Source: Candidatus Omnitrophota bacterium
GTDB lineage: Bacteria > Omnitrophota > Gorgyraeia > Gygaellales > Profunditerraquicolaceae
DNA length: 64,000 nucleotides
Reading direction: 5' to 3'
NCBI GenBank assembly: GCA_028716245.1
Contig: JAQUQW010000002.1
Location: 293,346-357,345 of the forward strand
Part shown: positions 4,471 through 16,686 of the stretch, piece after piece
How positions within the stretch are numbered: the first letter of the stretch is position 1
Layout: every line of letters begins with the position of its first letter
Notes under the pieces: generated by a model
What the model saw: the letters and a program-made list of their open reading frames with translations, nothing else
Told to the model about the DNA's origin: nothing
Databases searched by the model: none
Program-made: the position numbers and the translations under genes

Positions 4471-4839
4471 TTAGTTCTGTTCTTGTCCCGGGATATATTT
4501 TTTAATTATTCTATCCATTTCGTCTAAATCTATAGGTTTAATAAGGTAATCGCTTGCCCCCAGCGCCCGCGCTTCGTTCTGGTTTGAGTTATCATCTCTT
4601 CCGCTGATCATTATGGCTTTTATGCCGATATTTATTTCTTTCATCTTCCTCAAGAGGTCAAGCCCGTTTATATCCGGCATTTTAATATCCAGAAAAACCC
4701 ATTCAGGTTTATGACGGTTAAATAACTCAAGCGCTTCTTGGCCGCAAGTTGCCTTTTCTACGTTTAGGCCAAGCCGTTTAAGAAAAATACTAAAGAAATT
4801 AACAACCTCAATTTCATTATCGACTACGAGGACATTCAT
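4471..4839 (-). CDS. response regulator, receiver domain only (CheY-like)
   Basis: MNVLVVDNE..DIKMPDINGLDL..: acidic pocket, phospho-acceptor Asp and conserved Lys; no output domain. Confidence 0.8.
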   Translation of the reverse strand: MNVLVVDNEIEVVNFFSIFLKRLGLNVEKATCGQEALELFNRHKPEWVFLDIKMPDINGLDLLRKMKEINIGIKAIMISGRDDNSNQNEARALGASDYLIKPIDLDEMDRIIKKYIPGQEQN

Positions 4840-4901: not shown

Positions 4902-7082
4902 CTATTGTTTTTTTGGTAATTCTATAATAAAAGAAGTCCCTTCCATATAGTTTGAAGTAAACCGGATTTTGCCTCTGTGGTTTTCTTCTATAATCCTCTT
5001 TACCACATATACTCCTATGCCTGAGCCGGATTTATAGGAAGTTTTGGTGGTAAAGAAAGGGGCAAATATCTTAGGTTTATCCTCTGCTTTTATGCCTATG
5101 CCGTTATCCGATATTTTTATTATTTGTTGGCCTTGCGTATGCGTTAAGCTTAATCCTATGGCCGGGACAAAGGATCCCGGCTCTTTTTTTGCGCCAATCT
5201 GCATTTTTCTTTCTTCGATGGCTTCATAGGCGTTGTCCAGCAGATTATAAATGACTTCGGTTAATTGCGACTTGATTCCGTATATTGCCTCTTCATTATC
5301 AATTTTTACAGTAAGGGGGAGGGAGGCGGTTTCGTGTTTAAACATTAATAGGTCAGAGGAAAGCTTTACGGCTTCTTTCAGGGAAAAGACGGTGAAGAGA
5401 TTTTCTTTATTTTCTACTTTGGCAAAGTCAAGGATCCCTTTGATAATAGCGTCAGTCCTTTTTACGTTATCCAGGATGGTAGCGGCTATCTCATTCAGGT
5501 ATTTAAATGTTTTATTTAGTTCCGGGTTGTGGTTAACCAGCTTATCGTTTTTTTCTATAAAGTTTCTTACCTCAATTTTTAATTCCCCGCCTGTCAAGGA
5601 AAACAGGTTAAGCCTGTTTTTGATCTGGTGGGCAATGCCGTCAGCCATGCCTCCGATTGAAGCAAGCTTTTCGGCGGCGAACATCCTTTGCTGCGAGTCT
5701 TTTGATTCTTCGAAGAATATGCAATTTTCAATTGCCAGCGCTACCTGCCGCGAAAGAATTTTAAAAACATTAATATCTTCATTAGAATAAGGATGGGTGT
5801 TTGTTTTCTCACCCAGAAATACAAAACCAAAAAGCTCTTCCCCGATTAACACGGGGATAACTATTTTGGTTTTAGAAAGTATATTTGAAGAATTTTTTAT
5901 TTGTTCGGGAGCATTTTCAAAGAAAAAGTTTCCGCGGTTTTCCTTTAGATAACGGATAAAAGGATCATCTATATCAAAACTTTTAACGCATTCTCCGATA
6001 TTAGATTCTCCGCGTATTGATTTTAGTTGATACAAATTGTTTTTCTTATCTTTAATAAAGATCGCGGAGAAATTAATCCGGATTGTATTTTTTAAGATAT
6101 AAACAATAAGTCTTGATAATTTTTTTAGGTCATGTTCGGTAACCATGCCAACCGCGGCCCGCAAAAGTATCCTTTGATAACGGCGTTGTTGAGCTAAAAT
6201 AGCCGATTCGGCTTTCATCTGCAGGAAACGGTAGACCAGCGGTCCTATTGTTGCGAAAATAACCGCAAGGGAAGTGGCGAGTAATCCCGAACCCGTGCGC
6301 TTAAGCACGATAAACGGTATGCCTAGAACAATAGTGTAGACCGCAAGAAATATGCCTGCGCGGGTAAAGACAATTCTTATGTCCATAAGGTGATAACGGA
6401 TAATTGCATAACTCATCAAAAAAGAAAAAATAAGTACTGGAATAAAGCCAAAGGGGTATATCTCTAATCCATAGCAAGGCAGCCAATCTGTTGCCCCCAG
6501 ATAAGCAACAAGTGTCGCAATGAGGACTATTTTATATTGCCTCTTTTTCAGTCCAGCCGCTTTTTTATAAAGATTAATATAGTTTATTAAAGTTGCAATA
6601 AGGGGAATAATCCAATAAATTATAAATATATTTCCACCAATACCATTTTTAAAATAGCGTCCCCAGAAATAATGGTGAACTCCCGATAAAATATAATTGT
6701 ATTTTAAATTAGTTAAATAAAATATCAAACTGATTATAGCGCCAAGGATTACATATTTTCTTTGTTTATTGAGTAATTCTTTGTCATGGCATAAACTAAG
6801 CCAATAATTAGCGATTGAAATAAAACACACGCCCAGGAATTCAAATTTATTATACAACTCTATTACTATCCAATCATATTTTGACATATACGTAAGGCCA
6901 TTGCCAAACAGCCAAAAATTTGCCAGAATTATCCATATTGAAAAAGATATATTTAAGCGTACCTTGTTTTTTAAGCCGACAAATAACCCCAAGAAAATGG
7001 ATATTACACCACTGAGAAAAACAGGTATCGCATAAGGATTCCAAAAGTAATTCTGCGGGTTAAACATCTCTTTTAGCATCAA
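4902..7082 (-). CDS. sensor histidine kinase: N-terminal multi-TM sensor, GAF domain, HisKA, HATPase_c
   Basis: About 8 N-terminal TM helices; H-box GIAHQIKNRL; HATPase motifs DNGIGI and GSGIGV. Confidence 0.8.
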   Translation of the reverse strand: MMLKEMFNPQNYFWNPYAIPVFLSGVISIFLGLFVGLKNKVRLNISFSIWIILANFWLFGNGLTYMSKYDWIVIELYNKFEFLGVCFISIANYWLSLCHDKELLNKQRKYVILGAIISLIFYLTNLKYNYILSGVHHYFWGRYFKNGIGGNIFIIYWIIPLIATLINYINLYKKAAGLKKRQYKIVLIATLVAYLGATDWLPCYGLEIYPFGFIPVLIFSFLMSYAIIRYHLMDIRIVFTRAGIFLAVYTIVLGIPFIVLKRTGSGLLATSLAVIFATIGPLVYRFLQMKAESAILAQQRRYQRILLRAAVGMVTEHDLKKLSRLIVYILKNTIRINFSAIFIKDKKNNLYQLKSIRGESNIGECVKSFDIDDPFIRYLKENRGNFFFENAPEQIKNSSNILSKTKIVIPVLIGEELFGFVFLGEKTNTHPYSNEDINVFKILSRQVALAIENCIFFEESKDSQQRMFAAEKLASIGGMADGIAHQIKNRLNLFSLTGGELKIEVRNFIEKNDKLVNHNPELNKTFKYLNEIAATILDNVKRTDAIIKGILDFAKVENKENLFTVFSLKEAVKLSSDLLMFKHETASLPLTVKIDNEEAIYGIKSQLTEVIYNLLDNAYEAIEERKMQIGAKKEPGSFVPAIGLSLTHTQGQQIIKISDNGIGIKAEDKPKIFAPFFTTKTSYKSGSGIGVYVVKRIIEENHRGKIRFTSNYMEGTSFIIELPKKQ

Positions 7083-8379
7083 GGGTTCTCACCGTTAATT
7101 TTTTGGTATGCATAGTCGAAAGATACATTCTAATTAGAGACAAAAACGATTCTTTATCTTTGAGCACCAATCCTGCATATAGCGCTACTTTTGTAACGGA
7201 TCTGCAATATAAATGCGAAGAATTATTACCTATTGCGCAGGGTGTGCGTATATTCCCGTCGTTACGCATATGCAGGCAATATGTTTTCCGGGTTTTGTTA
7301 AAAACATTCATTGGGCAATTTTCAGCCAGCTCTTCTCCGTATTTTGTTCGCAACAATTCTATCATAAGTTTGCTATTACAAATAAAGTTTCCATATTTTT
7401 TCTTTAAACCTAATAATAAAGATACTGTTTTTTCTCTTTGCTCATCGTTCAAAATAAGATAGGAAGATTTTCCTTTGATAGGGGTATACATTGTAAAGAC
7501 TACGCCGTCAATTTTTGTTTTGCTCCATTCTTCCAAAAATTCTGAAATACAACCGGTATTTATAGCATTCAAGCAATATATAATAGCTGTTGATATTCTT
7601 TTCTCTGTCGCAGAAAATGCATTTTTCTTAATTTTATCATATACTCCTGCGCCTCTTAGTTTATCATTTATTTCTTTAGTGCCATCCACAGATATGGCAA
7701 CTTGGACGTTATTGCCAAGAACTGGGATCGGAAACGTGCCGTTAGTTATAACTAAGTTGTTTTTTTTAAAGTTAACTCCCCGTTTTAATAATTCAATTAT
7801 TTCTTCTTTGGCAAAAGGTTCCCCTCCAAACCATGTTATGTTTGTAATGCCGGGGTATTTGTTAAGGACATTTTTAACCGAATCTAAGATGTTTGTGTTT
7901 ACCGTTGTCGGTAACTGTTCGTCATATGAATCCCAAAAGCAGTGTTTGCATCTTAAATTGCACGTATTTGTAATATCAACTGACAAAGCGCGGGGATGTA
8001 AGTCTTCTATTAGCTTTGAGGAAAGAGGTATGGATGAAGTGTCGAAAGGTTGGCAGATTGCGTTAACTTTAATTTCTAATAAGGCCTTCTGTAAGATTTC
8101 TGATGTTTTTTCATCTAACTTTGTAAAACAAGCACCATAAATGAATCTGTTTTCTTTACGCTTATCCCAAATAGTATTTATTTCTATATCTATTATATCG
8201 CCAAAAGGAAATTCTATTCTAATTCCCATCTTTGATAGTAGTAAAGGTTTTTCTGATAAGAAACTTATGCCTGTTTCGTTTAGGTTAATAGTTTCTCCAG
8301 AAACTTCCGAAGCAATTCTTACCGGTAATACGGAATTGTATCTTGTAGATTTTCTTTTTTCTATGGTAAGGTCATTCAC
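7060..8379 (-). CDS. PilZ-like domain fused to a radical SAM enzyme (possible SPASM/twitch-like C-terminal Cys cluster)
   Basis: N-terminus EKRKSTRYNSVLPVRI (RxxxR) and NLNETGISF (D/NxSxxG-like). Then CNLRCKHC (CX3CX2C) and FGGEPF. C-terminus has CPMN..C..C..C. Confidence 0.6.
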   Translation of the reverse strand: MNDLTIEKRKSTRYNSVLPVRIASEVSGETINLNETGISFLSEKPLLLSKMGIRIEFPFGDIIDIEINTIWDKRKENRFIYGACFTKLDEKTSEILQKALLEIKVNAICQPFDTSSIPLSSKLIEDLHPRALSVDITNTCNLRCKHCFWDSYDEQLPTTVNTNILDSVKNVLNKYPGITNITWFGGEPFAKEEIIELLKRGVNFKKNNLVITNGTFPIPVLGNNVQVAISVDGTKEINDKLRGAGVYDKIKKNAFSATEKRISTAIIYCLNAINTGCISEFLEEWSKTKIDGVVFTMYTPIKGKSSYLILNDEQREKTVSLLLGLKKKYGNFICNSKLMIELLRTKYGEELAENCPMNVFNKTRKTYCLHMRNDGNIRTPCAIGNNSSHLYCRSVTKVALYAGLVLKDKESFLSLIRMYLSTMHTKKLTVRTLDAKRDV

Positions 8380-8396: not shown

Positions 8397-9704
8397 TTAA
8401 AGTTTAAAAGTCAAGGTTAATATATAAACATTAATAAAGGATTTATACCTTCCGTTAATACTGGTGCCGCTGGATGAGCCTACGGCATTATTGATTTTTC
8501 TTGGATTGTAAAACATCGCCGCATACGCAAAATCAAGGCCTAAATTTTTATTAATCTGATACCCTGTTCCCAAAGTCAGGGAATTTGAGGTAGAATCCGG
8601 TAAAGCGGTATCAAAAGTTCCCTCGGGTATGGGTGTTTTATGGAAAAAATATCCTGCTCTTAATTTCCAGCTTTCATTAACCTTATATTCTGTCCCGAAA
8701 GCGTACGATAAAACAGCCCGCCAGTCCCTTTGGACAGGGTTGCCGGCATTCAAAACAGCCAGCCGCGCAACATTTGTTTCCGACGGGTAATCGATCTGCT
8801 CTTTATCTACTGAAGACCAATCCATCCATTCCATGTCTGCCTCAAACCGCCATTTGTCGTCCGGCTTAAAACAATAACCGAATAATATGCTCTGCGGTAA
8901 TCTTGACTTTGTGGACATGTCGGTTTCGTAAGAGCTCCCCCCGAAGATGCCTTGATAGTTAGAGCCGGAACTATTCAGATCATTAAGATAGACCTTGCCT
9001 TTATACGTTAAATCTACAGCGCTGCGGTACATCAGCCCAAAAGAATGGTTTTTATTAAGCTTATATAGCGCAGATAACCGATAACCCCAGGCATTATTAT
9101 CTCTTCCTTTTAGCTGGAAATCTCCGTCGGCTCCGCCCGCCTGGAGAAGCTTCTTTTTTTTATTTGCCAGGGCTTTTGTATAATCCAGGCCTACGCCTAC
9201 AGAAATATTGTCATTTATCTCATATGCCGCAGTAAGCATAACGTCCTGCGTAATTACATCGCTTTTCGTAGCCACGTATTTTGAGAAACTATCTTCCGCC
9301 CAAAAGGTTCCCAGACCCCAGTAAGAAGTTGCGCCCAAGCCAAAGGAAAATTTTTCCAGGCCAAAGTCGCTTACGATAAAACCACTAGGGATCGTAAATA
9401 TCTGCCTGCGCCTGTCTGTTTGGTTTCCGGCGGTATCTTCATAAGTACAAAATGGCTGGACTACAGAAGCGCCCACAGAAACATATGTTTTTCCTTTTAA
9501 CTGGGTAAGTCCGGCGGGATTATAGTAAATAGCCGAGGGATTATCTGCCTGGGCCACAAAAGCAGAGCCTTTTCCTAAGGCTTCAGCGTCCGGGACTTCA
9601 AGACGATAGGCTCCTGAACCGGCAGAGTAGGCATTCTTTAGAGGGAAGGATAATGTTAACCCAAGCGAAAAAATAATTACTATCTTTTTCGTTTTTCCGT
9701 TCAT
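8397..9704 (-). CDS. outer-membrane transport protein, FadL/TodX family (hydrophobic-compound porin)
   Basis: Signal peptide, N-terminal hatch segment with YNPAGL motif, amphipathic beta-strands, about 435 aa. Confidence 0.75.
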   Translation of the reverse strand: MNGKTKKIVIIFSLGLTLSFPLKNAYSAGSGAYRLEVPDAEALGKGSAFVAQADNPSAIYYNPAGLTQLKGKTYVSVGASVVQPFCTYEDTAGNQTDRRRQIFTIPSGFIVSDFGLEKFSFGLGATSYWGLGTFWAEDSFSKYVATKSDVITQDVMLTAAYEINDNISVGVGLDYTKALANKKKKLLQAGGADGDFQLKGRDNNAWGYRLSALYKLNKNHSFGLMYRSAVDLTYKGKVYLNDLNSSGSNYQGIFGGSSYETDMSTKSRLPQSILFGYCFKPDDKWRFEADMEWMDWSSVDKEQIDYPSETNVARLAVLNAGNPVQRDWRAVLSYAFGTEYKVNESWKLRAGYFFHKTPIPEGTFDTALPDSTSNSLTLGTGYQINKNLGLDFAYAAMFYNPRKINNAVGSSSGTSINGRYKSFINVYILTLTFKL

Positions 9705-9858
9705 CCTTTTAGTTTTGAGTATGGAACATTATGCCATTATTAAAGTTGCGGGATTTATTTTTAGCAAAACTTACAAAATCATTATAATGGATTTCTCGGG
9801 TTTGTCCACGGTTTTTTATTTAACTATTAGAAAACAGGAGACTTAGGAAAGTTAGGAA

Positions 9859-9887
9859 TTGACTTTTGTATGCCAAGGTGGTATTAT
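9859..9887 (+). promoter_or_regulatory. sigma70-type promoter (-35 TTGACT, 17 nt, -10 TATTAT)
   Basis: Read directly; drives the RR gene starting at 9965. Confidence 0.55.
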
Positions 9888-9964
9888 TTATTCAAATTAA
9901 GGCCGGGCGTAATTTTAAAGAGACGGCCAAAGATAGCGGCAATGTTAGCGTGGAGGAGAGGGGG

Positions 9965-10357
9965 ATGGGAAAGAATAAAATTATGATTATTGATGATGAG
10001 AGCGGCACCGTTGATTTATTGGCGCACCGCCTGGAAAGTGAGGGCTATCAGGTGGTTGCGTTATCGGATGCCAAAGGGGTCATCTCTAAACTCCATAGTT
10101 TTATCCCGGATCTGATAATATTAGATCTGCTGATGCCGGAATACGGGGGGCTGGATGTTTGCGAGATGCTGAATAAAGAACCCCTGGGGTTAAACACGCC
10201 GATTATCGTAGTAAGCGGTTTGAATAAAGATGCCGATAAAAAGAAGGCTTATAGCCTGGGGATAGAGAAATATTTTGTAAAACCCGTGGATATGGATGTT
10301 TTGTTAGCGGCAATTAAGAAGCTTATAAAGGATAAGAGCAATGCCAGCGAAAATTAA
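9965..10357 (+). CDS. response regulator, receiver domain only
   Basis: True start ATG 9965 with RBS GGAGGAGAGGGGG. IMIIDDE..DLIILDLLMPEYGG..; no output domain. Confidence 0.8.
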   Translation: MGKNKIMIIDDESGTVDLLAHRLESEGYQVVALSDAKGVISKLHSFIPDLIILDLLMPEYGGLDVCEMLNKEPLGLNTPIIVVSGLNKDADKKKAYSLGIEKYFVKPVDMDVLLAAIKKLIKDKSNASEN

Positions 10358-11480
10358 AATATTCTCGGCAATAATTTTTACCACGCTTATAATCGCCGGA
10401 TTTTTTCTTGCGCGAGGATGCATCTCTAATTTATCAGGATCCTTGGCTAAAGATAAAGTTGCCCCGAGAGAATTAAAAGAAGCATTATATTGGCAGGAGG
10501 CGGGCGAAGGCAAGGTGCAGTGTTTTTTATGCCCCAGGCGATGTTTGATACCTTTGGGCCAGCGGGGTTTTTGCCGCGCAAGAAAGAATATCAAAGGCAA
10601 GCTCTATGCCTTAACTTACGGCTAGCCCGTGGCCATACATATCGACCCGGTAGAGAAGAAGCCGCTTTTTCATGTTTACCCGGGGACAAAATCTTTTTCC
10701 ATTGCTACCGCCGGATGCAATTTAAGATGCAAGTTTTGCCAGAACTGGGAAATTTCCCAACTGGATCCTGAAACAGTAAAAGTGGCTTATATTTCGCCGC
10801 AGGATATCGTAAGGGAGGCCAAGCAGAGCGGCGCAAAGACGATAGCTTTTACTTACACTGAGCCGGCGATCTTCTATGAATATATGCTTGATATCGCCAA
10901 ATTGGCCAAAAAGGAGGGCATTGCCTGCGTTATGCATTCGGCAGGTTTTGTTAATGAGGAGCCCCTGCGCCAGCTGTCTAAATACTTAACCGCCGCAAAT
11001 ATCGACCTGAAAGGTTTTAGCGATAAATATTATTCTTCTTTTTGCGAAGGCAACTTAACCAGCGTCCTTAATTCTCTTAAGGTATTAAAAGAGGAAAAAG
11101 TCTGGGTGGAGGTAACCAATCTCATTATCCCTTCCGCCAATGATTCCGACGAAGATATCGGCAATCTTTGTTTGTGGGTAAAAGATAACCTTGGCCCGGA
11201 TACCCCGGTGCATTTTTCCAGGTTCTTCCCGATGTATAAGCTGGCGGATTTATCTCCTACGCCGCTTAAAACATTAATCCGCGCAAAAGAGATCGCCTAT
11301 AAAACAGGGCTGCGCTATGTGTACATCGGCAATGTCCCGGAAAATTTAGGAGAGGATACAATTTGTCCCGTATGCGCCAAATTTCTGATTAAGCGCGCAG
11401 GCTATACCATATTGGAGAATAATGTTATTAAAGGTAAGTGCAAATTCTGCGGCGCTAAGATCTCCGGCGTATGGGATTAG
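10341..11480 (+). pseudogene. AmmeMemoRadiSam-system radical SAM enzyme (PFL-activase-like), interrupted by an in-frame TAG at 10623-10625
   Basis: ORFs 10341..10625 and 10629..11480 share a frame. Read-through gives ..CFLCPRRC..GFCRARKN..LYALTYG*PVAIHIDPVEKKPLFHVYPG..CNLRCKFCQNWE, the hallmark of this family. Confidence 0.75.
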
Positions 11481-13588
11481 TTGCGCAGGTTTTTCAGGGC
11501 AAAGATCGCGTTGAGCAAGATTAAAGTTAAAAGGCTATACGGTGTCCCCAGAAATGGTATAAGCAGTATCCCGCTTACCATTGTCCCCAGGAATGCCCCG
11601 ATTAAATCCGCTGAATAGATAGTCATAGCTAAATTTTTGTTGTCGAATTTATTTTTAAGCAGGTTTTGCGCCAGGAGCGGATAGGAGCTGCCGGTAAGGA
11701 ACCCGCAGATCAAGGAATAGAAATAGAAGATAAACTCGGCGTAACCAACCTTTGTGATTATTTTCAGGTTCCAAAATAAAATAAAGATCGAGATCATCCA
11801 GAAGAGGTAAAGCCCGGAGAGCAGGTTGGCCCGATAGGTTTTGATGGTATTTAAGAGAAATGTCCCGATGCTAAGCCCGGCCATAAACAAGGCGATTAAT
11901 AAGCCTAACTTCCAAAACAAAGCCCCGCAATAAAGTTGGAATAACACAAAAATTATCGAACTAAAGCTGATCGAAGTAAAGCCGATCATCCCGGTATTTA
12001 AGAGGCAGGAAATTTTTTTAAAAAGATAGCCGAAAATTATTATCAGTGCTGCCAAAAGCAAAAGAGCCGCGGCTATGCTTGAGCGCATTTTATTGAAATC
12101 TATTTTGAGGTTAGGATAAAACTTAATTTGTTCCAGGATAAGATAATTAAGGAAACCTGACGGGTTAAGGTCGGTATTTGCCGGGACATTTCTATCCAGC
12201 ATACTTTCCGTATAACTGCGCATCGCAGGGTCAAGATAGTCCTTAAAATGATAGATTGTGAAAAACTTAGTCCGGGGGTTTACCTTGGTAAAATTGTTCA
12301 GCAGATCGTCAGCATTAATTTTTAGCTTATCGGAGGCGATTACAATCATGGAATCAGAAGGGATAATGAAGGTATTCGTAAATACCCTGTCTATGGCATT
12401 TATTATGCTGGAGTCAAACCTGGCAAATTGCGGGCTTAATATTTCTCTTTTAGAAGGGATGGTAAATGCAAATATGCCTTTTGGTTTCAAGCGCCCGGGA
12501 ATAAGTTTAAAAAATTCTTCGGTAAAATAGCGGTTTAAGGCCAGGTTAACCGGCGCGGGCATATTCATTAAAATAGCGTCATATTGCCTGTTTGTGTTCT
12601 TAAGGTATAGGCGGGGATCATCAGTAATAAAATTAACTTTACTTTTTAGCCCGGCAGGCAATTTATTTTTGGCAAGTTTTGAGATCAGGGGGTTTATCTG
12701 CAGGCAATCCAGCGAGTTTAATTTATACTTAGCTATTTCTTCAACCTGTCCGGAGATGGCCGCGCCGACAAAGAGGACATCTTTATTAACGAGGGGGCTG
12801 GTTGCGGACAAACTCATATGGATAAATTCTTCATTGGCGGATCTATCTTCGCTTGTAGCTAAAGAAGATCCTCCGGAAAACAAGGTGGTTGCTCCTGCTT
12901 TGCAAGTGGCAATAATCGGGCCATAGCTAGAGCCAAGATTTACCAGGATATCAGCGTTAGCGAATTCTTTCTTAAGAATAGAGTTAAAACTTACTGCAGA
13001 GATTATAGTTATGATAATGATGAGGCAAGCCGGAAGGATTTTTTTATAGTGATTTTTAATGGCCGGCAACAAAATCAACGGTGATAACGCGAAAATCAGC
13101 GGATTTGTATAATCGATAAAGCAAAAAGTAAAAGCCATGCCCCCCAAGAAAAAACCTATTGCCTCAAAGGCAAAGAACTTAGCGTAAATATCTTTTTGCG
13201 GCTGATTTTCTCTAATGTATTCTTGCACAAAATGCCTGAAGGCAAGGCCGATGGTAAAAGCAGTTGGCCCGATCAAAATAATACTTAAAAATAATACCAG
13301 GCCCAGGCCCGCGGCTTCGTAATATTTTAATCCTGCCAGTGATTTTGCCAGATGGATCAGGCATACGGAGAAAGAAAAAGATAGAGAGGCTAAAATACAG
13401 AGTAGTGTTGTGCGCAGTCTTTTAGAAGTTTTGAGGATACTGCCTAAGGAGCAAAAAATAATCCAGAAACCCACAGCGACCACAAAGGCCAGCTCATTTT
13501 TGGCGATGGAGAAGCTGAATTCACGCAAGATGACCAGCTGAAATATCGCGGCAATTATCCCTAATGCTATAAAGATAATCATGGACAA
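11477..13588 (-). CDS. spermidine-synthase-like (polyamine aminopropyltransferase fold) fused to a large polytopic membrane domain
   Basis: 703 aa with more than 10 TM helices on both sides of a Rossmann-type SpeE-like segment (VLFVGAAISG..DAILMNMP..). Confidence 0.55.
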   Translation of the reverse strand: MSMIIFIALGIIAAIFQLVILREFSFSIAKNELAFVVAVGFWIIFCSLGSILKTSKRLRTTLLCILASLSFSFSVCLIHLAKSLAGLKYYEAAGLGLVLFLSIILIGPTAFTIGLAFRHFVQEYIRENQPQKDIYAKFFAFEAIGFFLGGMAFTFCFIDYTNPLIFALSPLILLPAIKNHYKKILPACLIIIITIISAVSFNSILKKEFANADILVNLGSSYGPIIATCKAGATTLFSGGSSLATSEDRSANEEFIHMSLSATSPLVNKDVLFVGAAISGQVEEIAKYKLNSLDCLQINPLISKLAKNKLPAGLKSKVNFITDDPRLYLKNTNRQYDAILMNMPAPVNLALNRYFTEEFFKLIPGRLKPKGIFAFTIPSKREILSPQFARFDSSIINAIDRVFTNTFIIPSDSMIVIASDKLKINADDLLNNFTKVNPRTKFFTIYHFKDYLDPAMRSYTESMLDRNVPANTDLNPSGFLNYLILEQIKFYPNLKIDFNKMRSSIAAALLLLAALIIIFGYLFKKISCLLNTGMIGFTSISFSSIIFVLFQLYCGALFWKLGLLIALFMAGLSIGTFLLNTIKTYRANLLSGLYLFWMISIFILFWNLKIITKVGYAEFIFYFYSLICGFLTGSSYPLLAQNLLKNKFDNKNLAMTIYSADLIGAFLGTMVSGILLIPFLGTPYSLLTLILLNAIFALKNLRN

Positions 13589-14267
13589 TCTTTCCTTTTG
13601 TTATTATATTAAACCCAAGATGAACGAAAGTCTATATTATTTATTTTTAAGCGGCTTGATCCTCGGTTCGGGCCCTTGTTTAGGTTTCTGCGCGCCGATC
13701 TTAATCGGTTTTACCGCGGCTTATAAACCGTCGCTAAAGGGGGCGCTGGTTTCCTACCTGTCTTTTTCTTCGGCTAAACTGGTTAGCTATATGGTTATCG
13801 GAGCTTTATGCGGTGTATTCTCCGGCATATTAAAAAGCGGTTTTTTCGCGGGCTACCTTAATATCGTAAACATAACTTTAGGTTTTTTTGTTTTACTCAT
13901 CGGGGTTTTGACAATTATTTCCAAAGAACCGTTAAGCAGTAAGTATTGCGCGTTTCTCTCTAAAGGGAACTTAAGGAACGCGGGCATTTTGGGTTTTTTA
14001 GCGGGTTTTTCTCCGTGCCTTCCGCTTCTGGGTATCTTAAATTATATCATTATTATTGCTCACTCGCCGCTTGAAGGATTGTTTTACGCTTTTATCTTTG
14101 GGCTGGGGACCAGCATTTCTCCGGCGATCTTATTGGTCGGCTTATCGGGCAAGCTTTTCGGTAATTTTTCAAGCAATAATAAGATCAGGGCATTAATCCG
14201 GATTGTCTCTAGTTTTATCCTGATATATTTGGGGGCAGGAATCATTTTTCAGAGGTTCATGCGGTAG
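13581..14267 (+). CDS. membrane protein, DsbD_2/CcdA-like (paired Cys in TM segments)
   Basis: GSGPCLGFCAP and GFSPCLP motifs in TM helices. The start may be the Met at about 13620 because it overlaps the divergent gene. Confidence 0.4.
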   Translation: MDNLSFCYYIKPKMNESLYYLFLSGLILGSGPCLGFCAPILIGFTAAYKPSLKGALVSYLSFSSAKLVSYMVIGALCGVFSGILKSGFFAGYLNIVNITLGFFVLLIGVLTIISKEPLSSKYCAFLSKGNLRNAGILGFLAGFSPCLPLLGILNYIIIIAHSPLEGLFYAFIFGLGTSISPAILLVGLSGKLFGNFSSNNKIRALIRIVSSFILIYLGAGIIFQRFMR

Positions 14268-14359: not shown

Positions 14360-14749
14360 ATGGCAAGGAAAAAAATAATAAAATTAAGGTGCCGAGGTTT
14401 TTCATTAATTGAGTTGATGTTCGGTGTTTCGATTTTATTGGTTACGATTATCGCCGCCCTGTCCTCGACTATTGGCTCTATGTTTCTGAATGAATCCAGC
14501 AGGAACCTGGTCACCGCAGCCAATGACGCGCAGTATGTGCTGGAGCAGATAAAAGCGCAAAGTTTCAGCAATATCTCAACCTATATTTCAGGTTTTTCTC
14601 CTACGAAATTCAATAATTTATTGGGAGAGACAGTTACTTTCCCCGGTCCTGTATATACTGCAAATCTGGATACAATAACCGTAGACATTACCTGGAATGA
14701 AAGAAATGCTGCCAGAACCCTCTCGATTACTACGCGTTTCGCGCAATAA
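14360..14749 (+). CDS. type IV pilin / pseudopilin (prepilin N-methylation motif)
   Basis: RCRGFSLIELMFGVSILLV: G|FSLIE cleavage and methylation motif plus hydrophobic helix. Confidence 0.75.
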   Translation: MARKKIIKLRCRGFSLIELMFGVSILLVTIIAALSSTIGSMFLNESSRNLVTAANDAQYVLEQIKAQSFSNISTYISGFSPTKFNNLLGETVTFPGPVYTANLDTITVDITWNERNAARTLSITTRFAQ

Positions 14750-15284
14750 AATAAGGGGCTTTACCCTGATGGAAACGCTCTTTGTCGCCCTTATTTTAGG
14801 CGCGATTATCGGGGTATTCTTTTACGCTGAAAACGCAGTGCAGCATTCTTTTACCTTAAGCTCGGCAAGAGGCAATCTCCAGTCGGAGGTAAGGCGGACA
14901 ATTGGCTGGATAATCAAGGATACCCGCCAGACGGTTAGCTGGGATATCGCCAATAATAGCCCCACTCCAAGTTATATTAAATTCAGGCAAGTTACCGGGT
15001 GGGATACCGCCAATAATACCTTTTCATTAAGTGATTATTATATAGAATATACGTATAATGCCGTTAATCATACAATCATCCGCAGAAAAAGCGACTTAAG
15101 CAATGGTACTTTAGGGTTATGGACTTTAAATGACATAGTCGCCGCGCCTTTCTTTACGGTAAATTCTTTAGGGGCGATTGTCCCGTTGAACAATAGCGAT
15201 TTGCTCACCAGTAAGCAATTAGTTATTACTATATCCGGAGGCACCTATAGCTTGACTGAAGAGGTGCAAATAAGAAATGGTTAA
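14697..15284 (+). CDS. minor pilin / pseudopilin (PilW/GspJ-like)
   Basis: RGFTLMETLFVALILGAII prepilin motif. The annotated start overlaps the upstream gene, so the true start may be later. Confidence 0.65.
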   Translation: MKEMLPEPSRLLRVSRNKIRGFTLMETLFVALILGAIIGVFFYAENAVQHSFTLSSARGNLQSEVRRTIGWIIKDTRQTVSWDIANNSPTPSYIKFRQVTGWDTANNTFSLSDYYIEYTYNAVNHTIIRRKSDLSNGTLGLWTLNDIVAAPFFTVNSLGAIVPLNNSDLLTSKQLVITISGGTYSLTEEVQIRNG

Positions 15285-16161
15285 TAACCGAAGCGTAGTT
15301 TTGGTTTATTCTCTTTTGGTAACTATGGTTTTATCTATTCTGCTCGGATCATTATATCTTAGCAGTATAAACGAAAACCTGCAGGTTAACCAATACGTAA
15401 ACTCTATGCGCGCTTTTTGGCTGGCTGAAGCGGGGATTGCTACCGTCAAAGCCAATCCGGGGCTTAGCGCGGTAAGTGAACATCTCCCTTTTGGATCCTC
15501 TAATTTTTACAATGTGCCTCCGCCTCAGGTTGTACCGAATACCGGTAATGTATATTGGATTATAAATTCTACAGGTACTGTAACCTTACCGAGTGGTTCT
15601 AGTGTAAGCAGGACCCTGACTGCCACCGTAAAAACAGCCGGGGCCGATTCTTCAAAGTTCCCATATGCGGTAGATACGACTACTGATTTGGTTACCAAAG
15701 GAAGCGTGACTATAAATGGCACTCCAAAACAAAATGATAATACTATTAATTTTACCAATATGTTTGGCGTTTCGAAAGCAACCATGAAAGCCGATGCCAC
15801 TCATCTTTATACCAATAGTAATTTTAATGCGCCTGTTGATGGCATAACTTGGGTAGATGTGGCTTCGGGGAATAGCCTGAGTATATCCGGAAATCTTACT
15901 GGAAGCGGTATTTTGGTTATCAATGGTGATGTGCATATATCCGGCACAGTGGTTTTTAACGGCATAATTTATGTTATAGGGACATTAACTATGACTGGCA
16001 CCGTGACGACTAGCGGCAGCGTTATTGCAGAGAGTTCCGCGACAGCAGATACTACAGTATCAGGGCATGTTACGCTGAACTTTGAACTTCCTGAGATAGA
16101 GAATGCATTGGCTAATGTGCAGTTTTTAAACAAGCAGATAGTTGCCTGGCGAGAACAATAA
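15277..16161 (+). CDS. PilX-like minor pilin/pilus assembly protein
   Basis: N-terminal hydrophobic helix followed by LQVNQYVNSMRAFWLAEAG (PilX N-terminal signature); Thr/Ser-rich beta region. Confidence 0.55.
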   Translation: MVNNRSVVLVYSLLVTMVLSILLGSLYLSSINENLQVNQYVNSMRAFWLAEAGIATVKANPGLSAVSEHLPFGSSNFYNVPPPQVVPNTGNVYWIINSTGTVTLPSGSSVSRTLTATVKTAGADSSKFPYAVDTTTDLVTKGSVTINGTPKQNDNTINFTNMFGVSKATMKADATHLYTNSNFNAPVDGITWVDVASGNSLSISGNLTGSGILVINGDVHISGTVVFNGIIYVIGTLTMTGTVTTSGSVIAESSATADTTVSGHVTLNFELPEIENALANVQFLNKQIVAWREQ

Positions 16162-16170
16162 GCTTCATCG

Positions 16171-16686
16171 ATGAAAAAGGTAAAACAAAAATATAAAAAT
16201 AATCGGATCAGCGGCGTAAAGGCCCCTGATTATTTACAAATAATAGAACGCCGTCATTTTATCCGCCATCCATTGTCTTTGCCTCTTACTTACAAGGTTA
16301 TCAGCCCGGGATTAGGCAAGAGCCGGGAGGATATGCAGGCTCAAACAAGCAATATAAGCGTAGGAGGATTGTTGTTCCCGGGAAAACGTTCTGTCCAGCC
16401 CAATTCTATGATTGCGATAAAAATGCCTTTTGAGGATAAGATGTTTAATATTAAGGCAAAAGTTGTCCGCTGCGTTAATAATCCGGAGACCAAACTTTAT
16501 GATATCGCGGTAAGTTTTTTCAGGTTCCATGAAGCTTTTAAGGCAAAAATGATTGAGCAGATTTATCTTATTTCGGAATACCGGGATTTGCTTATTTTGC
16601 AGTCGGGCAAAGAGATTTCTCTTGCCGAAGCATCGCGTAAGTGGGTGAAACGATATTCAGAACGATTTAAAAGGCTTTACTGGTAG
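16171..16686 (+). CDS. PilZ domain protein (c-di-GMP binding)
   Basis: RRHFIRHPLSLPL (RxxxR) and NISVGGLLF (DxSxGG). Confidence 0.7.
   Translation: MKKVKQKYKNNRISGVKAPDYLQIIERRHFIRHPLSLPLTYKVISPGLGKSREDMQAQTSNISVGGLLFPGKRSVQPNSMIAIKMPFEDKMFNIKAKVVRCVNNPETKLYDIAVSFFRFHEAFKAKMIEQIYLISEYRDLLILQSGKEISLAEASRKWVKRYSERFKRLYW

Follow-up and report, generated by a model that had tools for sequence, protein, structure and literature searches.

Can the chemistry of a radical S-adenosylmethionine (SAM) enzyme be switched directly by a signal, and on what would such an enzyme act? Enzymes gated by cyclic di-GMP (c-di-GMP) through PilZ domains, such as cellulose synthase BcsA and Alg44-dependent alginate polymerisation, are well known, as are receiver-gated enzymes; we know of no characterised radical SAM enzyme with a fused signalling input domain. 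The question is raised by a 64,000-nucleotide (nt) stretch of contig JAQUQW010000002.1 from a Candidatus Omnitrophota bacterium (assembly GCA_028716245.1, positions 293,346 to 357,345 of the forward strand; hereafter the window). An earlier note, made from the DNA letters alone, had pointed to an open reading frame (ORF) at 7060..8379 as a PilZ-like domain fused to a radical SAM enzyme, and both the ORF and the strings it quoted are present. The PilZ-radical SAM fusion is a real, rare, unnamed and uncharacterised family. We give about even chances to the reading that signals gate the window enzyme and that it serves as the catalytic arm of a module built around a membrane receptor. The protein and its parts are listed below.

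7060..8379, minus strand: PilZ-radical SAM fusion protein, 439 amino acids (aa), GTG start (ORF list, Pfam, MDD5477553.1)
8053..8361, minus strand: PilZ domain, residues 7-109, with six strands forming a beta-barrel ahead of helix 90-109 (Pfam and model)
8341..8355, minus strand: first c-di-GMP motif RxxxR, R9-K-S-T-R13, within EKRKSTRYN from residue 7 (conservation)
8269..8286, minus strand: second c-di-GMP motif NLNETG, residues 32-37, [D/N]hSxxG with Asn for Ser (conservation)
7480..7989, minus strand: radical SAM core, residues 131-300, with CX3CX2C (7939..7962) and GGEP (PF04055, conservation, fold)
7204..7317, minus strand: predicted auxiliary Fe-S cluster region, residues 355-392 (conservation, secondary structure of the model, fold matches)

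A PilZ domain joined to a radical SAM core

The N-terminal domain of the window enzyme is a genuine PilZ domain, as judged from its profile match and modelled fold. Pfam PilZ (PF07238) aligns with residues 7-100 along nearly its whole length (positions 1-100 of the 102 in the model) and scores 26.3 bits, where the cut-off is 22.5 (E = 1e-5). A full-length AlphaFold model, built on an alignment of 45 family sequences (mean predicted local distance difference test score [pLDDT] 85.7, predicted template-modelling score [pTM] 0.77), has six beta-strands within residues 19-87 and then helix 90-109; a six-stranded barrel with a C-terminal helix is the canonical PilZ core according to Galperin and Chou. 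A separate model of residues 1-112 (pLDDT 80.9) was compared with the PDB by Foldseek, and the top 32 matches are all PilZ proteins. These matches, mostly at template-modelling scores of 0.6-0.76 and many solved with c-di-GMP bound, include MotI/DgrA, YcgR, PA4608-type domains, Alg44, BcsA, MapZ, PP4397 and VCA0042. Searched against PDB sequences, a profile of 19 N-domains matches YpfA/MotI, a PilZ protein, best, though weakly (E = 0.024), and the alignment spans both motifs. The PilZ fold proposed in the earlier note is thus borne out, with PF07238 above its cut-off and fold matches solely to solved PilZ structures. Because profile and fold both support it, PilZ membership holds despite an Asn in the second motif.

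Both c-di-GMP signatures had been described as present in divergent form. The first, RxxxR (R9..R13), is there; the second departs from the consensus [D/N]hSxxG, with N32, the hydrophobic residue h (at L33) and G37 in place and N34 at the position of the Ser. Conservation was computed over 19 PilZ-fused relatives, most of which have PilZ domains at 15-27% identity to that of the window protein. R13, G37 and G82 are invariant across them and R9, W71 and F85 are at least 90% conserved, so that the fold-defining W71, G82 and F85 join R9, R13 and G37 as the most conserved positions of the domain. In PilZ domains a conserved Phe, here F85, packs onto the hydrophobic residue of the motif, and both this Phe and the h residue fit the PilZ description published by Galperin and Chou. 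The invariance or near-invariance of R9, R13 and G37 among domains so dissimilar supports selection on the ligand site of the PilZ-fused family. Most relatives carry a canonical NxSxxG (NISLGG, NMSQTG, NISQTG or NISNAG; for example P0006, P0008, P0019 and P0034). Going by these motifs, c-di-GMP binding by the window protein is on balance probable, and it is more probable still for the relatives with the canonical motif.

The radical SAM assignment of the catalytic part also stands. Pfam Radical_SAM (PF04055) matches residues 136-282 at 45.8 bits, Fer4_12 is matched as well, and the cluster and GGEP motifs lie in CNLRCKHC (residues 140-147, with C140, C144 and C147) and FGGEPF (residues 184-189). 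C140, C144, C147, G185, E187 and P188 are invariant in the 45 sequences. The protein therefore shows the hallmarks of the superfamily: CX3CX2C, GGE, a partial triosephosphate isomerase (TIM) barrel and a profile score above cut-off. Since CX3CX2C, GGEP and the auxiliary ligand positions are conserved in the 45 sequences, the enzyme is predicted to be catalytically competent.

Further toward the C terminus, a Cys cluster had been called SPASM/twitch-like, of which the SPASM half is dropped and the twitch half is kept as the probable one. C355 (the start of CPMN), C381 and C392 are invariant among the 45 sequences, and at position 389 every sequence has either His (22, the window protein among them) or Cys (23). 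C368, the second Cys of the cluster in the earlier note, is variable in the family, and position 372 is mostly Cys in the family but Arg in the window protein. In the AlphaFold model, residues 368-377 form a beta-hairpin and residues 395-405 a helix; twitch enzymes of the BtrN, MoaA, SkfB and BlsE type hold one auxiliary cluster in a shortened SPASM-like hairpin and helix. SPASM (PF13186) has no match in the window enzyme at E <= 0.1 in Pfam; a SPASM assignment was rejected on this ground and on the presence of four conserved ligands instead of the seven-Cys SPASM motif for two auxiliary [4Fe-4S] clusters, a motif that the ligand spacing of the family, C-x25-C-x7-[C/H]-x2-C, does not fit. The NCBIfam model N_Twi_rSAM (NF033640) scores 50.9 against a cut-off of 170. 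Because there are four conserved ligands, a modelled hairpin and helix and no SPASM profile match, the region points to a single twitch-type auxiliary cluster. The best fold matches of the catalytic half are the twitch/SPASM enzymes BlsE, anSME and SkfB, together with SuiB, ChlB, CteB, GDGT-MAS, viperin, MoaA and PqqE. As these include both protein-modifying and small-molecule enzymes, the fold gives no clue to the substrate.

A rare family and its conserved receptor partner

A word-indexed search returned about 66 close relatives of the window enzyme. Of 1.84 billion 50%-identity representatives scanned exhaustively with HMMER, 7296 match at E <= 1e-3, 377 of them at E <= 1e-10 and only 31 at E <= 1e-30, and the close family corresponds to approximately eight clusters among these representatives. 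The close PilZ-radical SAM family is rare. Its members come in three forms with 44-59% core identity between them. PilZ forms have an N-terminal PilZ domain and the core (about 440-475 aa; P0045 has two PilZ domains). Receiver forms (P0042, P0046, P0047 and P0054; about 450-470 aa) have an N-terminal receiver instead, in which the canonical positions are legible as an N-terminal DD, the D of ICDL, the T of ITGY and the K of KPF. Stand-alone forms consist of the core without an input domain (about 335-348 aa), and hmmsearch found no separate PilZ gene near them within their flanks.

In a neighbour-joining tree of the core from 45 sequences, which is distance-based and only indicative, the PilZ forms are scattered across the main, kinase-linked clade and interleaved with stand-alone forms. 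The receiver forms make up one subclade, and the basal branches and the candidate-phyla-radiation homologues have no input domain. The simplest account of this distribution is that PilZ was fused to the core once, early on, was lost several times afterwards and in one case gave way to a receiver. The PilZ subtype of the window protein also occurs elsewhere: at about 40% identity, and with a canonical second motif, DLSENG or DLSETG, it is found on a different radical SAM core (P0246, with CEYGCLYC) and fused to a methyltransferase-like domain (P0252 and P0091, with a weak Methyltransf_20 match in P0252). Because the same subtype sits on both, the sequences suggest that PilZ in this lineage is a transferable regulatory module for SAM-using enzymes.

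Existing annotation does not capture the fusion. The identical protein MDD5477553.1 is labelled merely 'radical SAM protein' at NCBI, with no PilZ domain in its name, and several relatives carry the JGI names 'sulfatase maturation enzyme AslB' and 'Fe-coproporphyrin III synthase'. No Pfam or NCBIfam family describes the fusion, and every NCBIfam match is far below its cut-off. Anaerobic sulfatase maturase (anSME, TIGR03942) was rejected at 38.9 bits against 349.45, as were the tetrapyrrole enzymes NirJ1 (55.6 against 650), AhbC (55.2 against 650) and NirJ (42.1 against 515) and other named radical SAM families (ScmE, PapB, mycofactocin, viperin, MoaA and others). We found no description of a PilZ- or receiver-radical SAM fusion in the literature, and radical SAM goes unmentioned in the review of PilZ domains by Galperin and Chou. 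The statement in the earlier note that no characterised system has this composition has therefore held, the search for a named family having yielded neither a curated family nor a paper.

The enzyme gene lies among the following features of the window.

8397..9704, minus strand: FadL/TodX-family outer-membrane channel, 435 aa (Toluene_X PF03349, E = 5.4e-64; MDD5477554.1)
4902..7082, minus strand: sensor histidine kinase with a HisKA_7TM membrane domain, GAF, H-box GIAHQIKN and HATPase_c (Pfam)
4471..4839, minus strand: response regulator of 122 aa consisting of a receiver alone, closing the gene block (Response_reg, 91 bits; MDD5477551.1)
9866..10357, plus strand: divergent receiver-only gene, likely start ATG 9965 (Pfam)
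9781..9808, minus strand: best sigma-70-like promoter match, TGGACA-16-TATAAT, just 5' of the FadL gene (11 of 12 hexamer positions)

The neighbours listed in the earlier note, namely the channel, the GAF kinase and the receiver-only protein, are all upheld by Pfam and by their coordinates, with 17 nt between the stop of the channel gene and the start of the enzyme gene. MDD5477554.1, named 'outer membrane protein transport protein' by NCBI, matches PF03349 at full length (216.6 bits, model positions 15-418 of 421) and scores 94.5 against a cut-off of 585 with the E. coli FadL equivalog NF007988; by these profiles it is a member of the FadL/TodX family, yet not FadL itself. The kinase scores 54.2 bits with HisKA_7TM (PF16927), 31.8 with GAF_3 and 77.1 with HATPase_c, has multiple hydrophobic segments, and shares its H-box with seven partner kinases aligned to it as GIxH[EQ]IxN. 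An identity as the PEP-CTERM kinase PrsK was ruled out at 100.7 bits against 300. In the literature, HisKA_7TM is mentioned solely as an uncharacterised sensor domain. The kinase start does overlap the stop of the enzyme gene, but the 23 nt given for this overlap presume TTG 7082; with ATG 7067 it is 8 nt (ATGTTTAA; the junction reads gATGTTTAAc in context). ATG 7067 is the likely start because it matches the start called in the sister locus L176. The promoter-like site at 9781..9808 is a consensus match only, in a region with 28 such sites against 18.3 +/- 5.4 expected in shuffles, and is possibly the start of a four-gene operon of channel, enzyme, kinase and receiver. None of the genes of this operon encodes a DNA-binding regulator.

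To see which neighbours are conserved, adjacency was counted over 15 distinct close-family loci, the window included; contig pattern scans yielded at least four close loci (L016, L017, L096 and L097). A HisKA_7TM(-GAF)-HATPase_c kinase lies directly 3' of the enzyme gene and on the same strand in ten of the 15 (the window, L176, L001, L177, L179, L005, L008, L009, L011 and L096). The partner kinases are 700-725 aa long and in several loci overlap the enzyme gene by 4-8 nt. The pairing spans PilZ, receiver and stand-alone forms, down to approximately 46% enzyme identity, while the other flanking genes vary. Two deeper relatives (L004 and L097) lie instead beside methyl-accepting chemotaxis proteins, which are polytopic and have no large periplasmic domain. 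As in the window, receiver-only genes come after the kinase in L005, L006, L011 and L012.

The FadL channel is upstream in only two loci, the window and L176, which holds the 77%-identical sister P0005 in the same layout and has a receiver gene at the same divergent position as 9866..10357. Coupling to the channel, as proposed in the earlier note, is therefore not a general property of the family. Because receptors adjoin the enzyme in 12 of the 15 loci and FadL in two, the conserved unit is the enzyme with a membrane receptor, not the enzyme with a channel.

Several observations on flanking genes stand apart from this count. In the receiver-fused relatives L005 and L006, the block of enzyme, kinase and receiver continues into a PilM gene. 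The stand-alone locus L011 has a second HisKA_7TM kinase, without GAF, approximately 2 kb upstream of the enzyme. A maturase of ribosomally synthesised and post-translationally modified peptides with an adjacent precursor was also considered and rejected: there is no conserved small ORF, and the 68-aa (L004) and 54-aa (L015) ORFs have no family matches and are mutually dissimilar.

Distant homologues from anammox Planctomycetota (L018, L019, L021, L025, L098 and L099) are 30-36% identical and consist of the core only. Their block contains a SurA-like peptidyl-prolyl isomerase, two uncharacterised proteins of 122 and 188 aa, the radical SAM gene, NhaP, a TrkA_C protein and CobA. The 188-aa protein has a signal-peptide-like N terminus, and some loci have a PAS kinase and a sigma-54 response regulator upstream. 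The two uncharacterised proteins have no counterparts near members of the window family. In a Paceibacterota genome (L013 and L014, 6001..7515 on the plus strand), the gene after a core-only homologue of 297 aa encodes a protein of metallo-beta-lactamase fold that weakly matches the Anti-Pycsar protein Apyc1. AmmeMemoRadiSam and Memo genes lie approximately 4 kb further downstream there; the AmmeMemoRadiSam gene of the window is approximately 2.3 kb from the enzyme gene. Neither the anammox nor the candidate-phyla-radiation neighbourhoods offer a pointer to the substrate.

Proposed signal gating and its rivals

How might such an enzyme be controlled? The PilZ domain is connected by its C-terminal helix and a short linker to the radical SAM core, which is predicted to carry a SAM-cleaving [4Fe-4S] cluster (C140, C144 and C147) and a twitch-type auxiliary cluster (C355, C381, H389 and C392). 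In the mechanism that we propose, c-di-GMP bound at R9, R13, N32 and G37 would alter the packing of the PilZ domain on the catalytic barrel and so turn the radical chemistry on or off. Such an allosteric route is plausible because the PilZ C-terminal helix, which contacts partners in MapZ and BcsA, runs into the catalytic domain. The enzyme and the downstream, translationally coupled seven-transmembrane (7TM)-GAF kinase would then form a conserved two-gene module. Where the enzyme carries a receiver, that receiver could be phosphorylated directly by the kinase next to it; in the PilZ forms c-di-GMP would address the control point that the kinase addresses in the receiver forms; and the stand-alone forms may be controlled through co-expression or direct contact. 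As the operon has no DNA-binding regulator, the output of the kinase is presumably post-translational.

A number of points weigh against a signal-gated enzyme. Allosteric gating and functional coupling to the kinase are what we infer from anatomy and synteny only. The Pfam score of the PilZ domain exceeds its cut-off by only 3.8 bits, and the window protein and its four closest relatives (P0002-P0005) have (N/D)LNETG, in which Asn replaces the motif Ser. Among the ORFs of the 64-kb window that are 100 aa or longer, none has a GGDEF or EAL motif. Three of the 15 loci (L015, L017 and L180) have no adjacent receptor. The stand-alone enzymes keep their kinase partner, so the input domain is dispensable for the role of the enzyme-kinase pair. 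An alignment of eight partner kinases contains no invariant Cys or other obvious modification site. Finally, the fold matches of the catalytic half are generic, at 13-22% identity, and mix protein modifiers with small-molecule enzymes.

If the enzyme is signal-gated, its substrate may be the receptor itself. This refinement of signal gating, which names the substrate, holds that the radical SAM enzyme covalently modifies the adjacent 7TM-GAF kinase or chemoreceptor, with the PilZ or receiver domain setting the level, in parallel with the tuning of receptor methylation by phospho-CheB and by MapZ-CheR1. It would account for the tight, often overlapping gene pairs with receptors of two classes in 12 of the 15 loci, and a receiver-enzyme fusion beside a kinase mirrors the logic of CheA and CheB. 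The nearest folds are mostly protein or peptide modifiers (anSME, SkfB, SuiB, ChlB, CteB and PqqE), and the PilZ protein MapZ regulates a SAM-dependent receptor-modifying enzyme via its C-terminal helix (5xly is among the fold matches). However, the eight aligned kinases share no invariant Cys, Ser or Gly target and no conspicuous motif, no segment common to partner kinases and partner chemoreceptors was detected, and three loci have no receptor beside the enzyme. We regard modification of the receptor as an unlikely but serious candidate.

In a modified form of the idea in the earlier note, the enzyme could instead transform a hydrophobic or membrane-associated compound that enters through the FadL-like channel in the window clade and is sensed by the 7TM or GAF domain of the kinase. 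Channel, sensor and enzyme would then be encoded together because all three deal with one compound. The channel gene is 17 nt from the enzyme gene in the window, a layout repeated in L176, but FadL is missing from the flanks of 13 of the 15 loci. Every partner receptor is a polytopic membrane protein that lacks a large periplasmic domain, GAF in the kinase is a ligand-binding domain, and BlsE and GDGT-MAS are among the fold neighbours; on the other side, no other catabolic or lipid-pathway genes recur beside the enzyme, and the conserved neighbours of the distant anammox homologues give no chemical clue. Such a route for a small molecule is doubtful. Between the receptor itself and a hydrophobic or membrane-associated small molecule as substrate, we rank neither above the other.

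A third possibility concerns the input rather than the chemistry. The PilZ domain of the window clade may have lost c-di-GMP binding together with the motif Ser and kept a docking or structural role, for example for the kinase or a receiver, as in PA2960/XAC1133. NLNETG or DLNETG stands throughout this clade in place of [D/N]hSxxG, the Pfam score is marginal, the precomputed PilZ match of the sister P0005 is 'faint', and loss of binding is documented for other PilZ domains (Galperin and Chou). Yet the documented non-binders are without the motifs altogether (Galperin and Chou), and PA2989, although the D/N of this second motif is substituted, still binds c-di-GMP. Further, Asn could still give or take the hydrogen bond of the Ser. 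We consider a degenerate PilZ domain improbable, though worth keeping in mind for the window clade.

The remaining alternative, a housekeeping or cofactor-maturation radical SAM enzyme of the AslB or Fe-coproporphyrin synthase kind whose place beside a kinase is meaningless, has the JGI names of relatives in its favour and is very improbable and already disfavoured, given scores far under the anSME, NirJ1 and AhbC cut-offs, an adjacency that persists to approximately 46% identity and across three architectures while other flanks differ, and two different signalling input domains that are hard to square with a constitutive role.

To return to signal gating, its strongest form would make these the first radical SAM enzymes under direct control of bacterial signalling, exerted by c-di-GMP on PilZ or by phosphorylation of a fused receiver. 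Paired obligately with a 7TM-GAF kinase or a chemoreceptor, they would make up a signalling module not recognised before, whose radical chemistry modifies the receptor or makes or destroys its ligand. Taken as a whole, this stronger claim is a speculative one that we would not expect to hold in full.

Wider context and known systems

Elsewhere in the window, a second and stand-alone PilZ protein at 16171..16686 on the plus strand has canonical RxxxR and NISVGG motifs and scores 35.3 bits with PF07238, which fits c-di-GMP signalling in this bacterium. Directly before it lies a cluster of minor pilins, in which two genes (14360..14749 and 14697..15284) match prepilin N-methylation motifs and an ORF (15277..16161) does not. 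The PilZ protein looks like a pilus-associated c-di-GMP receptor, approximately 8 kb from the fusion gene. In L011, a protein with GAF and HD-GYP domains (11960..13282, plus strand), with an intact HD and HHERFDGMGYP, follows a block of enzyme, kinase and two receivers and is likely a c-di-GMP phosphodiesterase.

Other genes close to the enzyme in the window were noted in passing. The AmmeMemoRadiSam radical SAM gene at 10341..11480 on the plus strand (TIGR04337, 335.5 bits against a cut-off of 220 for 10629..11480) is interrupted by a single in-frame TAG at 10623..10625 (ggcTAGccc), and its missing N terminus is encoded by the same-frame upstream ORF 10341..10625 (...CFLCPRRCLIPLGQRGFCRARKNIKGKLYALTYG). 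The TAG could be a sequencing error, the mark of a pseudogene or a site of stop-codon read-through. The gene convergent with it encodes a polytopic membrane protein of 703 aa that contains a spermidine-synthase-like domain (11477..13588, minus strand; PF01564, E = 4e-10), and next to that lies a gene for a DsbD_2-type membrane protein (13581..14267, plus strand).

Among known systems, BcsA (4p00 and 4hg6) comes close to the window enzyme in having a canonical PilZ domain covalently fused to an enzyme, with the PilZ C-terminal helix packing against or leading into the catalytic domain. It is the model of c-di-GMP allosteric gating of catalysis, which is demonstrated for BcsA and proposed here for the window enzyme. 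In BcsA, the PilZ domain is C-terminal and sits on a membrane glycosyltransferase of family GT2, whereas the window enzyme has an N-terminal PilZ domain on a soluble radical SAM core. MapZ-CheR1 (5xly) resembles it in that a c-di-GMP-bound PilZ protein controls a SAM-dependent enzyme acting on a signalling receptor, and the PilZ subtype of the window also occurs fused to a methyltransferase-like domain. MapZ, however, acts in trans on a classical methyltransferase, and the window PilZ domain lies in cis on a radical SAM enzyme.

CheB, PleD and RpfG share with the receiver-fused relatives P0042, P0046, P0047 and P0054 an N-terminal receiver joined to an enzyme, with a histidine kinase adjacent. 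The relatives differ in that their output is a radical SAM enzyme, a combination not found in the literature, and the window protein in that it bears PilZ. BlsE (7vob), anSME (4k36), SkfB (6efn), SuiB, MoaA and viperin are 13-22% identical to the catalytic half, and none has a signalling input domain. In toluene degradation, the TodX channel is co-encoded with the two-component system TodS/TodT, which handles the same molecule. A comparison of the window with TodX/FadL and TodS/TodT is limited by a channel link confined to the window clade and by the lack of a DNA-binding regulator and of a recognisable catabolic pathway.

If signal gating is true, a switched radical SAM enzyme would link second-messenger signalling to oxygen-sensitive radical chemistry and would give two-component systems and c-di-GMP networks an output of a new class. 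Found with PilZ, with a receiver and without an input domain, the one core comes as a ready experimental set for allosteric control, and the conserved pairing provides a handle on the roles of both the HisKA_7TM sensor domain and the enzyme family. The module is also an entry point to signalling in Omnitrophota, a phylum known largely through metagenome-assembled genomes.

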